Origin: Squalus acanthias
Lineage: Eukaryota
Reading direction: 5' to 3'
DNA: 64,000 bases
Assembly (NCBI GenBank): GCA_030390025.1
Contig: CM059432.1
Coordinates: forward strand, 4,464,001 to 4,528,000
Shown one piece after another: positions 6,345 through 49,959 of this stretch. The notes under the pieces were generated by a model. The model made no database searches. It was given only the letters and a program-made list of their open reading frames with translations, and was not told where the DNA came from. How positions within the stretch are numbered: the first letter of the stretch is position 1; each line of letters starts with the position of its first letter. Position numbers and translations under genes: made by a program.

Positions 6345-7235
6345 GGGGTAAAAATTCACTTGGTTGCGCCTCCCGTTAGCGCCTTAAGAGGGCGCTAATG
6401 GGGCGCAAAGCCGCTAACGCCCGGGCGCAGCGATGTTTGCGCCGCTCGAGAACTTAACTTGAGATTGTGCGGCGGCGCTAAAACTTACCGCTGCGACCAC
6501 CTGCGCGCGCAGATTGTGACGTCATTCCATGGTGCAACGCCCTTGGGGCGCCCCAGAGCGGAAATTGAGTGGCGCCCCCTGCCTTACAGCCTGGCGCTTC
6601 CAACGACCAGAAGACTGGAACGCTATCAATCGCTGTGGGGCTGGGGGGGGCGCTATTTAAAGGGGGCCTCTTCCGGTCTTTTATTGTTGGTGGCATTTTT
6701 GAACTACGCATTCTGAGAGAGAGAGGGAGAGACTTCTGGAGAGATTCAACGTTGTGTGAAGGAGTTTTGGGTACTGAGCAGCACTTTGCAGGTTCATTTT
6801 GATTTGCCATTCCTTGTATCGATTTAGCAGAGACCGTGGGAGCTGCACTCTGAGCTCTTTGCCTGGTACTCTCCATTGTTCTTTCCAGCACATTTGATGT
6901 GCAAGTCTCTCCAGGCCGAGATTCAAGGCAGCAATGAACAGGATGTGGATGGAAAGCAAGATTAACCATCCCTTTAAGAACTGGCCCATGCCATTGTGTG
7001 TGTGTTCCATTGCTGACTGACATTACATGAGCTTCGCCAGCGCTCGAGTTAGCGCCTCACTCCTTGGCCTTTGCGCCTTAAGAGAGGTGTGCAGCGCCTG
7101 CTTTAGCGCTCCACTCACCTCCCGGGGCGGTAAAAGTGAAGTTTCCTGTCAGTGCCGATAATTAGCGCCAGGCGCTAATATTTGCGTCCGGACGATATTT
7201 GCGCCCCAAATGGGGCGCGACCTAATTTCTACCCC
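6345..7235 (-). mobile_element. ~890-bp Harbinger-type MITE, family A, copy 1 (orientation relative to the other copies)
   Basis: TIR GGGGTAAAAATT...AATTTCTACCCC, TSD ATA; highly similar to 7247-8142, 31454-32346 and 34634-35526. Confidence 0.9.
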
Positions 7236-7246
7236 ATAGAGTCATA

Positions 7247-8142
7247 GGGGTAGAAATTCAGTATCGCCCCATTTGGGGCGCAATTATCGGCCGGGCGCAA
7301 AGTGTAGCGCCTGGCGCTAATTATCGCCTCTGACTGCAAACTTGACTTTTATCGCCCCGTGAGGTGATTGGAGCGCTAAATCAGTCGCTTCACACCTGTC
7401 TTAAGACGCTAAGGCCGAGGAGCGAGGCGCTACCTCAGAGCGCTGGCGAAGCTCATGTGATGTCAGTCAGCAATGGAACACAGACACACTGGCGCCGGCC
7501 AGTTCTTAAAGGGGAGGGTTGATCTTGCTCTCCATCCACATCCTGCTCATTGCAGCCTCGAATCTTGTCCTGGAGAAACCTGTACATCAAATCTGCTGGA
7601 AAGAACAATGGAGAGGCCCAGGGAAAGAACTCAGAATGCAGCCCCCAAAGTCTCTTCTAAATTGAATAAGGAAGGTCAAATCAAAATGAACCTGCAAAGT
7701 GCTGCTCAGTACCCAAAACTCCTTCACACAGCGTTGAATCTCTCCAGAAGTCTCTCTCTCTCTCTCTCTCAGAATGCGTGGTGCAAAAATGTCACCGACA
7801 AAAAAAGGCAGGAAGCGGTCGCCTTTAAATAGCACTCCCCCAGTCCCTTCCCGACTGCAAAACGTTTCCCTCAACCTGTCATTGCTAGCGGCAGGCGGTA
7901 AGGCAGGGGGCGCCACTCAATATCCGGTCCGGGGCGCTACCGGGGGCGTTGCACGCTCGACTGACGTCACGATCTGCCGGCGCAGGAGATCGTGGCGGTA
8001 GTGTTTAGCGCCGCCGCAAAATGTCTGGTCAATTTCGCGAGCGGCGCAAACATCGCTGCGCCCGGGCGCTAGTTGCTTTGTGCCCCATTAGCACCCTCTT
8101 AAGGCGCTAACGGGAGGCGTAAACCAACCAAATTTTTCTCCC
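7247..8142 (+). mobile_element. ~890-bp Harbinger-type MITE, family A, copy 2
   Basis: TIR GGGGTAGAAATT...AATTTTTCTCCC, TSD ATA; inverted relative to copy 1 with an 11-bp spacer. Confidence 0.9.
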
Positions 8143-8235
8143 ATAGAGTCATAACGGCACAGAAGGAGGCCATTCGGCCCATCGAGTCCGTGCCAGCTCA
8201 CTGTAGAGCAATCCAGTCAGTCCCATTCCCCCGCT

Positions 8236-23780: not shown

Positions 23781-24585
23781 TATGGTTCTACAGACTGTGA
23801 TTGTAATTGGTCTTGGATGATTGGTTAGGTGAGACTTGCCTTGACTTTCCCTTCGAAGATGTTCAGTGACCTGCTGAGTATTCCCGGAATTCTCTGGTTT
23901 TATTTTCAACTCCCAGCTTTTTTTGAAGTTTTTTTCCTTTTTTATTGGCACTGTTTCAGGTCGTGTTTTATACCAGCATCAGGACAAGATATTAATGAGG
24001 ATATGCAATGGGAATACTTTAGAAACTAGGGCTAGTCTTTTTAAGTAGCTAGGAAATGTCGAACAATTTTTTTTCCCCCGTTAATTGCTTTCTAGTCATT
24101 ACTCCATTTTGTGTCGCGTTTTCTCCATTGTCAATGATGCTTCATGTAGTCTGCTTTTTGTGATAACAACCAGCCCGCTGTGGGCAAAGAATGAGTAATC
24201 ATCTATTACCGCACGGCAGTTAGCGTTTTCAAGAAGATATAATGAAATCCTAAGAGACCGCTTTCATGCTCTGAGACTGAAGCCCCATGTCACTGGCACA
24301 TCAATGTGCAAATGACACTGGAAGGCTGATTGCAGAACATTACCTTAATTTGTGAGGCACCGGGCTAAATGGTTCTGCTTCACTTATTCATCCAATTCCA
24401 GCAGCGGATGAGATGTGCAAAGGTGGCTTGTGAACCCGTGTCCACAGGGGGATTGTCTTGGTCCTGCCCAAACTGGTTTCACTTAACAGCCATCAAAAGG
24501 GAGGAGCCCATCTGTCTGCGTTAGATATTTTCGAGAAAATGTTGTCCTTTCAATAACCCGAGGACCTATTTGAGTAAGGCAAAGG

Positions 24586-31039: not shown

Positions 31040-31453
31040 GAAAAAAGAATTTGCATCTATATAGCGCCTTTCATAACCTCAGGATGTCCCAAAGCGTTTT
31101 ACAGCCAATGAAGTACTTTTTGAAGTGTAGTCACTGTTGTAATGTAGGAAACGCGGCAACCAACAGCCAACAGCAATGTGACAATGACCAGGTAATCGGT
31201 TTTAGTGATGTTGGTTGAGGATAATATTGGCCAGGACACCGGGGATAACTCGTCTGCTCTTCTTCGAAATAGTGGCCGTGGGATTTTTTACTTCCACCTG
31301 AGAGAGCAGACGGGGCCTCAGTTTAACGTCTCATCCAAAAGACGGCACCTCCGACAGTGCAGCACTCCCTCAGCACTGCACTGGGAGTGTCAGCCTAGAT
31401 ATTGTTCTCAAATCCATGGAGTATTACTTGAGCCCACAACGTTCTGACTCAGA
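31040..31453 (-). mobile_element. Deu-domain SINE
   Basis: Reverse complement of the family consensus; its head abuts MITE 31454. Confidence 0.82.
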
Positions 31454-32346
31454 GGGGGAAAAATTCAGTCGCGACCCATTTGGGGCGCAAATATCGTCCG
31501 GGCGCAAAGATTAGCGCCTGGCGTTAATTATCGCCACTGACTGGAAACTTCACTTTTAACGCCCCGGGAGGTGATTGGAGCGCTAAATCAGGCGCTGCAC
31601 ACCTGTCTTAAGGCGCAAAGGCCGAGGAGTGAGGCGCTAACTCAGAGCGCTGGCGAAGCTCATGTAATGTCAGTCAGCAATGGAACACACACACAATGGC
31701 ACGGGCCAGTTCTTAAAGGGGATGGTTGATCTTGCTTTCCATCCACATCCTGCTCATTGCAGCCTTGAATCTCGGCCTGGAGAGACCTGCACATCAAATC
31801 TGCTGGAAAGAACAATGGAGAGTACCAGGCAAAGAGCTCAGAGTGCAGCCCCCACAGTCTCTGCTAAATCAATACAAGGAATGGAAAATCAAAATGAACC
31901 TGCAAAGTGCTGCTCAGTACCCAAAACTCCTTCACACAACGTTGAATCTCTCCAGAAGTCTCTCTCACTCTCTCTCAGAATGCGTAGTTCAAAAATGGCA
32001 ACAACAATAAAAGGCAGGAAGCGGTCACCTTTAAATAGCGCTCCCCCTTTCCCTTCATGACAGAAGAACGCTCCTATCAACCTGTCGTTGCTAGCGTCAG
32101 GCGGTAAGGCAGGGGGCGCCACTCAATATCCGCTCCGGAGCGATACAGGGGCGTTGCACACTCGTCTGACGTCACGATCTGCCGGCACAGGAGATCGTGG
32201 CGGTAGTGTTTAGCGCTGCCGCAAAATGTCTAGTTAATTTCGCGAGCGGCGCAAACTTCGCCGCGCCCGGTCGCTAGCTGCTTTGCGCCCCATTAGCGCC
32301 CTCTTAAGGCGCTAACGGGAGGCGCAACCAACTGAATTTTTCCCCC
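31454..32346 (+). mobile_element. Harbinger-type MITE, family A, copy 3
   Basis: Perfect 16-bp TIR GGGGGAAAAATTCAGT...ACTGAATTTTTCCCCC, TSD AGA. Confidence 0.92.
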
Positions 32347-32807
32347 AGACAGTCTTATTTTCACATAAATAATTGACTAATTTATGATTGGAATGGAGTA
32401 TACCAGAACTCACTCCACGTGAGACTGCTGAATGAAGTAACTTGCTGTAACACACCGGCAATTTACTGGAGTCATTGCAAAACTCCTGCCAAAAAAACAC
32501 CTCTCCTACGTCCCGAGTGGGAAAACAATCTTTCAAGGACAAACAATGTTTTTCTACGCCATGTATTTTCTAAGATTATACTCTGCAACCCTTTGGAAAC
32601 TGACTGTTAATTTACATCATTCAAGCAGATGCTGCCGGGATTATTTCAATCAATTCATACAATGCTACAGTGCAGAAACATCTGGCCCTCCAACTGAGTG
32701 AGATTAAGAAAGAAAGAAAGAAAGAAAGAGAGACTTGCATTTATACAGCACCTTTCACAACCTCAGGACGTCCCGAAACGCTTTACAGCCGGTGAAATAC
32801 TATTTAA

Positions 32808-33152
32808 ACAAAAGCAAAATACTGCGGATGCGGGAAATTTGAAATAGAAATAGAAAATGCTGTAAATACTCAGCAGGTCAGGCTGCATCTGTGGAGAGAG
32901 AAACAGAGTTAACGTTTCAGGTCAATGACCCTTCGTCAGAACTGGATAAAGTTGGAGATGGAACAGGTTTTTAAGCAAGTGTAGGGGCAGGGAAAGCGGG
33001 GAGGGGAGGAAAGAACAAAAGGGAAGGTCTGTGATAGGGTGGAAGGCCGGAGAGATTAAGAGACAAAAGGGATGATGGTGGTGAGGCAAAAGGAGATGGT
33101 AATGGGACAAGTTAAGAAACAAAAGATGGCAGGATGATCAACAGCTGCCAAG
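32808..33152 (-). mobile_element. Penelope-like element 3' fragment (family P1)
   Basis: Flanked by a 10-bp TSD TACTATTTAA; carries a hammerhead motif; homologous to 47010-47227 and 33440-33585. Confidence 0.75.
32907..32943 (-). ncRNA. Minimal type-I hammerhead ribozyme motif
   Basis: Minus strand reads AGUU CUGACGA A GGGUC AUU GACCU GAAA CG U U AACU: stem I, core, stem II, GAAA, palindromic ACGU stem III, UH cleavage site. Confidence 0.8.
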
Positions 33153-33256
33153 TACTATTTAATGTGTTGTCACTGTTCTAATGTAGGAAACACGGCAGCC
33201 AATTTGCACACAGCAAGCTCCCACAAACAGCAATGTGATAAATGACCAGATAATCT

Positions 33257-33585
33257 CCACGGATGTTGCCTGGCCTGCTGAGTGTTTCCAGTGTTTTCTG
33301 TTGTTATTTCAGATTTCCAGCATCCGCAGTATTTTGCTGTTGTATCAGTGTTTGGTTCGCTGCCAACTCTCTTCTAGGAATGCCCACCTTGAAGAATTTC
33401 TGCTCTTCTCTCTGACGGGATTTCCGTTTGTCTCTTCAACCTTGTTTTCCAGTTCTGATGAAGGGTCCCAGACCTGAAACGTTAACTCTGTTTCTCTCAC
33501 CACGGATGCTGCCCGACCTGCTGAGTGCTTCCAGCATTCTCTGTTGTTATTTCAGATTTCCAGCATCCGCAGTATTTTGCTATTG
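33257..33585 (+). mobile_element. Mini Penelope-like / retrozyme-like element with a terminal direct repeat
   Basis: TSD TAATCT; 33257-33342 is repeated at 33500-33585 (period 243 nt); hammerhead at 33451-33487. Confidence 0.75.
33451..33487 (+). ncRNA. Minimal type-I hammerhead ribozyme motif
   Basis: AGUU CUGAUGA A GGGUC CCA GACCU GAAA CG U U AACU; predicted cleavage after 33483. Confidence 0.8.
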
Positions 33586-34269
33586 TAATCTGTTTAAGCT
33601 GTTGGTTGAAAGATAAATATTGGCCAGGACACCAGGGAGAACTTCCCTGCTCTTCTTCAAATAGTGACTCGAAATCTTTTAGATCCACCTGAGAGAGCAG
33701 ACAGGGCCTAGGTTTAACATCTACATCTGAATGACAGCACCTCCGACAGTACAGCCCCAGAGTGTCAGCCTAGCTTTTTGTGCTCAAGTCTCTGGAGTGG
33801 AACTATGCAACCCACAACCTTCTGATTCAAAGGCGAGAGTGCTGCCCACTGAGCCATGGCTGACAATACATCTGTTGCGCTAACGCTACCCTTGTAAGCT
33901 TACTTGTGGTGTCATGAGGAGGCAGCACAGTGTTGGGACAACCGTAAGCAATTCCAGAATTAACCAGACATGCAACGTATTTCTGAATATCACTGTCAAT
34001 CAAACAAACTGACTTAATTCATGTTCCTGGCCAATAATGTACAGTGCAATCGATATTATGATAACATATGCTATGAATTATTCTGTAATTCGCTGTAGTA
34101 AGATTTTTTAAAAAGGCTGTCAATAATATAGGCCCTCTGCCACCTTAAGGACCTAAAACAACAACAACTTGTATTTCTATAGCGCCGTTAGCGCAGTAAA
34201 ACGTCCCAAGGCGCTGCACAGGAGCGATTATCGAACAAAATTTGACACCGAGACACATAAGGAGATATT

Positions 34270-35922
34270 GGGCCGTAATTTGCGGCCCCTACAGGGTGCG
34301 TACGAGGTGTGTACGCGGCCGTAGGGGCCGCGCAAGTTCTGGGTTTAGGCGTGCGAAGCGCATGCGTGGAAATCCAGAACGTGCGACCGGTCAAGAAGAT
34401 CACCCGCATCCCCAGGAGACGGGCCTCCGCGGGCGGGGAGTTGTGCTATTTGCCCAACCTCCGCCCGCTGAATGTCCGTGAAACTCTTACGCCGGGTAAA
34501 AGTAAACGTAGGGCCTGCTTTTACCAGGGTAAGAGTTTTAAAAAATAGAAAAACAAAATGTTATCACTCATTTATACTTTAAAAACCCAGTCCAATAAGG
34601 TAAGTTTATTTTTAGCCCTATTAGAATATATATGGGGGAAAAATTCAGTCGCGCCCCGTTTGGGGCGCAAATATCGTCCGGGCGCAAAAATTAGCGCCTG
34701 GCGCTAATTATCGCCACTGACTGGAAACTTCACTTTTAACGCCCCGGGAGGTGAGTGGAGCGCTAAATCAGGCGCTGCACACCTGTCTTAAGGCGCAAAG
34801 GCCGAGGAGTGAGGCGCTAACTCAGAGCGCGGGCGAAGCTCATGTAATGTCAGTCAGCAATGGAACACACACACAATGGCACGGGCCAGTTCTTAAAGGG
34901 GATGGTTAATCTTGCTTTCCATCCACATCCTGCTCATTGCAGCCTTGAATCTCGGCCTGGAGAGACTTGCACATCAAATGTGCTGGAAAGAACAATGGAG
35001 AGTACCAGGCAAAGAGCTCAGAGTGCAGCCCCCACAGTCTCTGCTAAATCAATACAAGGAATGGAAAATCAAAATGAACCTGCAAAGTGCTGCTCAGTAC
35101 CCAAAACTCCTTCACACAACGTTGAATCTCTCCAGAAGTCTCTCCCTCTCTCTCTCAGAATGCGTAGTTCAAAAATGGCACCAACAATAAAAGGCAGGAA
35201 GCGGTCACCTTTAAATAGCGCTCCCCCTTTCCCTTCATGACTGCAGAACGCTCCCCTCAACCTGTCGTTGCTAGCGTCAGGCGGTAACACAAGGGGCGCC
35301 ACTCAATATCCGCTCTGGGGCGATACCGGGGCGTTGCACACTCGAGTGACGTCATGATCTGCCGGCGCAGGAGATCGTGGCGGTATTGTTTAGCACCGCC
35401 GCAAAATGTCTAGTTAATTTCGCGAGCGGCGCAAACTTCGCCGCGCCCGGGCGCTAGATGCTTTGCGCCCCATTAGCGCCCTCTTAAGGCGCTAACGGGA
35501 GGCGCAACCAACTGAATTTTTCCCCCATACTTTTTTTTCAAAAAATTACATTTTTGTTTAAAATATTTAATTAAATGGCATTTTAATTAATTTTAAATAT
35601 GTAATTTTTTTAACTTATTTTATGTGTTCGTGTATTATTTAAGTGATCTCCATTCATGCTTATGACAGTTCTGTACATACGGAATCCACATAAGTATGAA
35701 TGCGGATTCCCTTCTGTCATTGGTTGGGCCAGCCCACATGATCCCAGGGGAGCTCACGAACCGCCTGCACCCCTGGGGTATGTGGGCCTCGACCTGCAGG
35801 TACCCGGAGAGGCCCAGGAGCGCGAGTCTACGAACCTCCCGGACCACCAGGTAAATTCGTAGATTTGTTGCAGGTTGGAGGCCTCCGCCCGCGGGAAGCC
35901 TCCGACCGCAAATGGTTGGGCC
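34270..35922. mobile_element. Harbinger-type MITE (family C-related) hosting family A copy 4
   Basis: Imperfect TIR GGGCCGTAATTTGCGG...CCGCAAATGGTTGGGCC; TSD ATT/AAT; GC-rich ends around an AT-rich core. Confidence 0.78.
34634..35526 (+). mobile_element. Harbinger-type MITE, family A, copy 4
   Basis: Perfect 16-bp TIR GGGGGAAAAATTCAGT...ACTGAATTTTTCCCCC; nearly identical to 31454-32346. Confidence 0.92.
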
Positions 35923-39301: not shown

Positions 39302-39338
39302 TTACCTGACGAAGGAGCAGCGCTCCGAAAGCTCGTGA
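39302..39338 (+). ncRNA. Minimal type-I hammerhead ribozyme motif in a ~95-bp Penelope-like fragment (family P2, ~39291-39385)
   Basis: UUAC CUGACGA A GGAGC AGC GCUCC GAAA GC U C GUGA; palindromic AGCU stem III; predicted cleavage after 39334; followed by AATAAA and ctgttggactataacctggtgttgtg. Confidence 0.8.
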
Positions 39339-46845: not shown

Positions 46846-47227
46846 GTGTGCCTGCTTTGCAAATTCTGATCATTTTACGTTGTTTTGTGATTTATTTTTT
46901 AATTTACTTAATTTTAACTTCCAATTTCATTGTACTGTCCTGATAAATGCTCCAATATTTATGAAATTAGTGGTGCATATTTTAGCTACCATAAGTCGCA
47001 TCAAGCACCTACATTTGCTTCTTAACTTGTCCCATTACCATCTCCTTTCACCTGGCACCATCATCCCTTTTGTCTCTTAATCACTCCTGCCTTCCATCCT
47101 ATCACAGACCTTCCCTTTTGTTCTTTCCTCCCCTCCCCCCTCTCTCCCTGCCCCTACACCTGCTTAAAAACCTGTTCCATCTCCAACTTTTTCCAGTTCT
47201 GACGAAGGGACACAGACCTGAAACATT

Positions 47228-49580: not shown

Positions 49581-49959
49581 GACTCTGTTTCTCTCTCCAC
49601 AGATGCTGCCCGGCCTGCTGAGTGTTTCCAGCATTTCCTGTTTTTGTTACATTGAAAGCAGACTGTTTCCGAGACACACGCTCACTATTTTGATTTGGGC
49701 AATTGTGGAGGGAATTGCCAGGAACGTCATTTTCATCAAAGCTAATCAGGATGCGACTTTAAATAAGCAGCACTGGCATTTAGAAATGATGTACGTATTG
49801 ATTTTGTTTTAATAACATGTTTTGCGATATTTAATAGTATTTAAACAAACATCAGTGTGATCGACATTCAGCTTTAAGCTAATCAATGAAAGAGAATCTT
49901 CTTTAATAATTGCGGCTAGATTTCCTAACTGTGAAACATCTTGTAACATCTTTGTTACG

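Follow-up and report, generated by a model that had tools for sequence, protein, structure and literature searches.

A probable internally deleted Penelope-like element copy with a single hammerhead motif in the genome of Squalus acanthias

Layout of the insertion and of its host repeat

The window analysed here, a stretch of 64,000 nucleotides of DNA from Squalus acanthias, contains at positions 33257–33585 an insertion of 329 bases inside a SINE-like repeat, with TAATCT duplicated on either side as a TSD (Table 1). The insertion carries two direct repeats of 86 nt, offset by 243 nt and identical at 78/86 positions; all eight mismatches between repeat A and repeat B are transitions. In contigs, this 86-nt repeat corresponds to the high-copy end of a family. 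A 329-bp insertion bounded by this TSD, with an 86-nt terminal redundancy at 243-nt spacing, had already been described in a sequence-only reading made without database searches, and its coordinates, sizes and order of parts hold.

Table 1. Features of the insertion, its host repeat and the neighbouring stub (positions in the window).
Feature	Position	Strand	Remarks
Left TSD TAATCT	33251..33256	+	Last 3 nt also match the element's upstream sequence; family contigs start at 33254
Repeat A, pLTR tail, 5'-truncated	33257..33342	+	Begins 16 nt (13 with microhomology) beyond the predicted cleavage-site position
Parent-element head	33343..33446	+	Leader 33343–33379; likely ORF start with ATG at 33380, ~22 codons, TGA at 33413–33415
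Internal fusion point	33445..33446	+	Exact shared TT; imperfect similarity over ~14–18 nt upstream
Minimal type I hammerhead motif	33451..33487	+	Full-descriptor match; definition as given in PMC4209133
Repeat B, pLTR tail	33500..33585	+	3' end falls in the zone usual for the family (corresponding to 33581–33588)
Right TSD TAATCT	33586..33591	+	Matches the left copy
Host SINE-like repeat	32721..33865	+	Pieces ~32721–32807, 33153–33256 and 33592–33865; split by the element and a second Penelope stub
Independent 5'-truncated Penelope 3' stub, same family	32808..33152	-	Own hammerhead; TSD of 10–13 bp

The host repeat has many copies within the 64-kb window. Twelve others were examined and the anchor motif was found in eight, where the site is single and unbroken in 8/8 (five exact and three with one substitution). 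Furthermore, contigs from four public sequencing runs pass from 33256 directly into the empty-site sequence (1474, 1294, 1664 and 130 records). The TAATCT TSD is therefore real, because empty host copies carry the site once and without interruption; at the borders, TCT (5' end) and TA (3' end) fit target and element alike. The evidence supports 33257–33585 as a single TSD-bounded insertion of a Penelope-like element (PLE) derivative. It has a direct redundancy of the pseudo-LTR (pLTR) type, a minimal hammerhead motif in the pLTR, a TSD at an AT-rich target and a 3' end in the zone where the family's reverse transcriptase (RT) starts, and the Penelope origin proposed from the letters alone is supported.

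In principle, a Penelope piece carrying the head and a separate 3' stub could have inserted side by side on two occasions, or an assembly artefact could have joined them. The same host repeat did take a second, independent Penelope insertion ~100 bp away, and the two 86-nt repeats differ by 9.3%; nevertheless, one TSD encloses both parts, the internal join is without duplication and the divergence of the repeats is what age predicts, and we regard this explanation as very improbable. The 9.3% divergence is twice the distance of the element's head from the family majority (at least 5/104 sites), which is the age expectation, and the two repeats may therefore have started out identical when the element inserted. 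The value fits one old event, and it does not separate a circular from a linear template.

Several other repeats were noted in the window. The host copy at 32721–33865 was hit twice by the same Penelope family, ~100 bp apart and on opposite strands, with TSDs of 10–13 bp and 6 bp; the pair forms a 142-nt inverted repeat (87%) with two hammerheads. At the TAATCT site, the insert is absent from all other aligned host copies. Another Penelope 3' stub, at 47014–47227 (+), is 91% identical to the 32911–33123 part of the neighbouring stub, and its hammerhead stops just after GAAAC at other sequence, near the predicted cut site. Short fragments of the pLTR tail without the hammerhead core lie at 49582–49651 and 23858–23905. 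A family of ~900-bp repeats has an apparent inverted (palindromic) pair at 6345–8153, and two single copies that are mutually 96% identical (31445–32357 and 34631–35530) flank the region of the element.

Hammerhead motif and middle segment

The hammerhead motif consists of a 4-bp stem I (33451–33454/33484–33487), the core CTGATGA (33455–33461), a 5-bp stem II (33463–33475), GAAA (33476–33479) and a palindromic ACGT, with an unpaired A after position 9 and a G–U pair at 10.1–11.1; cleavage would be predicted after 33483. The full descriptor has four matches in the window, compared with a mean of 0.19 (maximum 2) over 100 approximate dinucleotide shuffles. By itself, the loose motif lacks significance, with three matches in the window and 18/100 shuffles reaching three. 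Rfam gave no match at gathering score in the whole window, and at E up to 10 within 32700–33900 it gave two chance matches, neither of which is the hammerhead.

In the folding calculations, the minimum-energy fold of the monomer differs from the hammerhead (z = 0.46 and -0.36), the fold of the whole element has z = -1.64, the co-fold of two copies yields a plain duplex and not an active dimer, and the fold of the 243-nt circle is no better than those of shuffles (z = -1.16; 15/100 equally good). These model results neither back nor rule out hammerhead activity. In the predicted folds, whose overall stability does not exceed that of shuffles, the head sequence before the junction also pairs with the core and stem II of the hammerhead (33427–33471), which would block the hammerhead. 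According to PMC4209133, the minimal hammerheads of Penelope pLTRs did not cleave as monomers and cleaved poorly as dimers. The hammerhead had been called intact in the sequence-only reading; through the full descriptor this stands for the sequence motif, and it goes too far if taken beyond sequence.

A second, unrelated family of minimal hammerheads is present at 39306 (+) and 46143 (-), with the core CTGACGA, a different stem II, the palindrome AGCT and a common downstream tail. The two copies span ~83 nt at 86% identity and are likely to be the ends of another Penelope family.

For the middle of the element we used contig mapping onto 33200–33499, which drew on 4/24 listed runs (three from other organisms as DNA-type runs and one possible RNA run); the best share of query words was 0.47, and the species itself is probably outside this sample. 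No RNA run is listed as carrying the sequence, a result that does not bear on expression. The 104-nt middle (33343–33446) is multi-copy in 4/4 of these runs, and its depth relative to the pLTR tail is 1/44, 1/128, 1/32 and 1/278, values of summed contig depth and not of copy number. Frame 1 is open from 33257 up to the TGA at 33413–33415. The element had earlier been said to have no ORF, which overlooked the ATG at 33380, opening ~22 codons with this one stop. Position 33413 is C in ~87–99% of the contig depth of the family, so the TGA is private decay. Among the variants listed, the common ones (33385 and 33412) affect third codon positions and are synonymous, and the indel at 33395 is 3 nt long.

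The ATG at 33380 and the following ~22 codons are thus likely, on these sequence features, to be the start of the parent's presumed RT–GIY-YIG ORF. The middle segment also fits the ORF start of shark Penelope elements. Its assignment to the beginning of a Penelope ORF draws on its position, the synonymous variants and this resemblance, because the protein searches gave no tie. The first search, with the internal stop read as X, had no candidate, and the second, with the stop read likewise, had 17 candidates and none at E up to 10. A third search returned seven weak matches, five of which cover the pLTR/hammerhead frames only. The match P0001 was rejected as an unrelated repeat protein, and P0002, which overlaps the junction region weakly, was not taken as a second copy of the junction. 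The middle had been described as ~105 nt of different sequence; it is a multi-copy family head that in contigs of three other organisms goes over into unlike sequence at 33446, and it is not retrozyme-specific.

Internal junction and origin of the copy

Among the 32 pieces listed of 177,379, all from other organisms, six reach 33446; all six stop there and 0/6 cross, and the unlisted pieces could include short junction-bridging contigs. Unaligned letters, 17–137 of them, are left in five of the six: two plus-strand pieces continue past 33446 with 51 and 137 unlike letters, and three minus-strand pieces have 17, 23 and 38, read as on the 33446 side (one other piece has 1). From the opposite side, records with a loose end enter at 33445 in four runs (193, 282, 266 and 30), and the loose ends match the stretch that precedes the hammerhead in the stubs at 32808–33152 (-), which shows the usual sequence upstream of the family's hammerhead, and at 47014–47227 (+). 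Contigs leave the head at 33446 and enter the tail at 33445 from a normal Penelope 3' region; head and tail are therefore fused in this copy.

Tandem arrays or differently permuted copies of the 243-nt unit had been proposed as a check; the junction occurs once in the window, without a second copy, and no tandem array was found in 32000–35000. The sequence-only reading had also allowed that a junction unique to this locus would mean a one-off deletion of a full Penelope copy, and such uniqueness is now favoured on the basis of the window and of the contigs of other organisms. In DNA pattern scans, 7/7 loci from metagenomes were chance matches of 20–22 nt, and there were no matches in viral contigs or prokaryote genomes. 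Contig joints that go back 243 nt, a candidate sign of circles, occur in DNA runs and equal hammerhead-to-tail read-through of any pLTR; they were discarded, because the query ended at 33499, so that any pLTR produces them.

We consider it probable that the locus is a lone or rare internally deleted Penelope-like copy, made probably by a template jump of the RT. It is likely to be a by-product of an abundant Penelope-type parent, dead and not a self-spreading RNA circle, and is likely unable to propagate itself. In the proposed sequence of steps, the parent's endonuclease would nick the AT-rich target site, and the RT would start within the tail, copy 141 nt and stall (other family members in the window have been shortened to about 70–345 nt). 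The RT would then re-prime on the ORF-start region through short similarity, skipping the coding region, and continue to 13–16 nt from the hammerhead-cut 5' end of the RNA, after which the cDNA end would be joined to the target through TCT. Among 600 random breakpoint pairs, 5.5% equal the similarity seen at the junction; this microhomology is borderline (p about 0.055) and suggestive only. A later DNA deletion in a full-length copy would yield the identical sequence, and we lean only slightly towards the template jump. A TSD-bounded Penelope derivative with a microhomology-mediated internal deletion is on record in PMC3846280.

The ends of the element bear on its template. In contigs, the 3' ends of the family pile up at 33338 and 33345, equivalent to 33581–33588 in repeat B, and the 3' end of the element at 33585–33587 is at most 1 nt from the corresponding end of the neighbouring stub. 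Internal RT initiation with pLTR redundancy is known for linear or tandem PLE templates from the anole element, as described in PMC11167929, and the 3' end seen here follows the same pattern. We infer mobilization by a Penelope RT, as had been suggested from the letters. The 5' end lies 13–16 nt beyond the predicted cut site, a position with a 7% chance if stops were uniform on a circle, which mildly favours a linear template ending there.

A feature that counts against the by-product reading is that the unit at 33257–33499 has 243 nt, or 81 codons, and that the junction neither breaks the hammerhead nor shifts the frame; selection for a working unit would have the same effect. In one alternative, the locus would be a dispersed copy from a small family of non-autonomous mini-Penelopes, similar to R2 SIDEs or Chlamydomonas MRC1, in which the linear RNA of a deleted master was copied in trans by Penelope protein. 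Parts likely to be needed in cis are kept, namely the RT-start tail and the beginning of the ORF, which the anole protein requires (PMC11167929); the TSD is clean, the 3' end is standard, and non-autonomous PLE derivatives exist (PMC8557442). Against this, 0/6 junction-reaching pieces from other organisms cross (among the 32 listed of 177,379), the 64-kb window has one copy only, and the ORF start is retained over ~67 nt only, compared with the 172 nt needed in the anole assay, made on a different family (PMC11167929). We regard such a family as rather unlikely, though worth keeping in view.

A true non-LTR retrozyme would require a 243-nt tandem array elsewhere, giving a self-cleaved circular RNA, and a 1.35-unit copy made by RT round the circle. 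The permuted layout had been read as the trace of such a 243-nt circle, but any copy arranged as pLTR tail, head, deletion, hammerhead and pLTR tail gives the same redundancy. The unit is 243 nt long with 46% GC and carries a dead ORF start, and metazoan retrozymes are non-coding units of 220–350 nt with GC under 50% (PMC7229834); retrozymes derive from PLE pLTRs, with one cartilaginous fish reported to have them (bioRxiv 10.64898/2026.07.22.740005), and more-than-unit copying of circles has been proposed for PLEs (PMC4209133). However, the bioRxiv preprint works with a definition by which an active non-LTR retrozyme has two consecutive hammerhead units, and the locus has 1.35 units and one hammerhead, on the strand of the element. 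With one hammerhead of the dimer type, unit-length RNA is not releasable, so no circle arises from the locus alone. Furthermore, no array was found in 32000–35000 and no second junction in the window, no junction-bridging piece is among the 32 listed of 177,379, 15/100 shuffles fold as well as the circle, and minimal hammerheads cut poorly and not as monomers (PMC4209133). A true retrozyme is accordingly improbable.

Read as a circle, the unit has one stop in frame 1, at the position that is C in relatives. Another frame likewise has one stop only, so composition partly explains the low counts. It is similarly improbable that the locus is a lineage-specific shark retrozyme at birth, in which an in-frame deletion created a circle-copied 243-nt unit with hammerhead, RT start and ORF start, whose 81 codons, now broken by one stop at a sense codon of the relatives, might once have allowed endless translation.

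Comparison with known Penelope-derived and related systems

We found no paper on this shark element in the literature searched. Among the closest known systems are endonuclease-bearing PLEs (Cervera & De la Pena, 2014, PMC4209133; PAc of Anolis, PMC11167929), with which the element has in common pLTR redundancy, an AT-rich target, a TSD, a minimal type I hammerhead, a palindromic stem III and a 3' end downstream of the hammerhead. In contrast to them, it is without an RT/endonuclease ORF and its 5' repeat is without a hammerhead; the pair 10.1–11.1 is G–U, whereas G–C is usual in Penelope hammerheads (PMC4209133). The Adineta vaga derivative (Arkhipova et al., 2013, PMC3846280) is likewise TSD-bounded with a microhomology-mediated internal deletion, although its pLTRs are inverted and more of the element survives in it, whereas the shark element has direct repeats and ~22 codons. 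The R2 SIDEs (PMC6765202) also have a head-to-tail fusion with the ORF lost and the ribozyme kept; they form families replicating in trans, with an HDV-like ribozyme and an rDNA target, whereas the shark element is known from one copy in the window.

The metazoan non-LTR retrozymes (Cervera & De la Pena, 2020, PMC7229834; Li et al., 2026, bioRxiv 10.64898/2026.07.22.740005) share with the shark element a non-coding unit of ~250 nt, a type I hammerhead and derivation from PLEs. They are tandem with at least two hammerheads, and those of coral, mussel and axolotl make circular RNA, whereas the shark locus is known from DNA, with 1.35 units and one hammerhead, and at best resembles their 'monomer' class. 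If it is a lone by-product, its importance is small: it neatly illustrates how Penelope copies become shortened, and the kind of material thought to give rise to retrozymes. Were the junction amplified or circular, it would mark out a minimal cis-acting RNA for a Penelope RT and would trace to the base how an autonomous Penelope element turned into a vertebrate retrozyme, a connection that has so far been argued from co-occurrence and pLTR trees (bioRxiv 10.64898/2026.07.22.740005).
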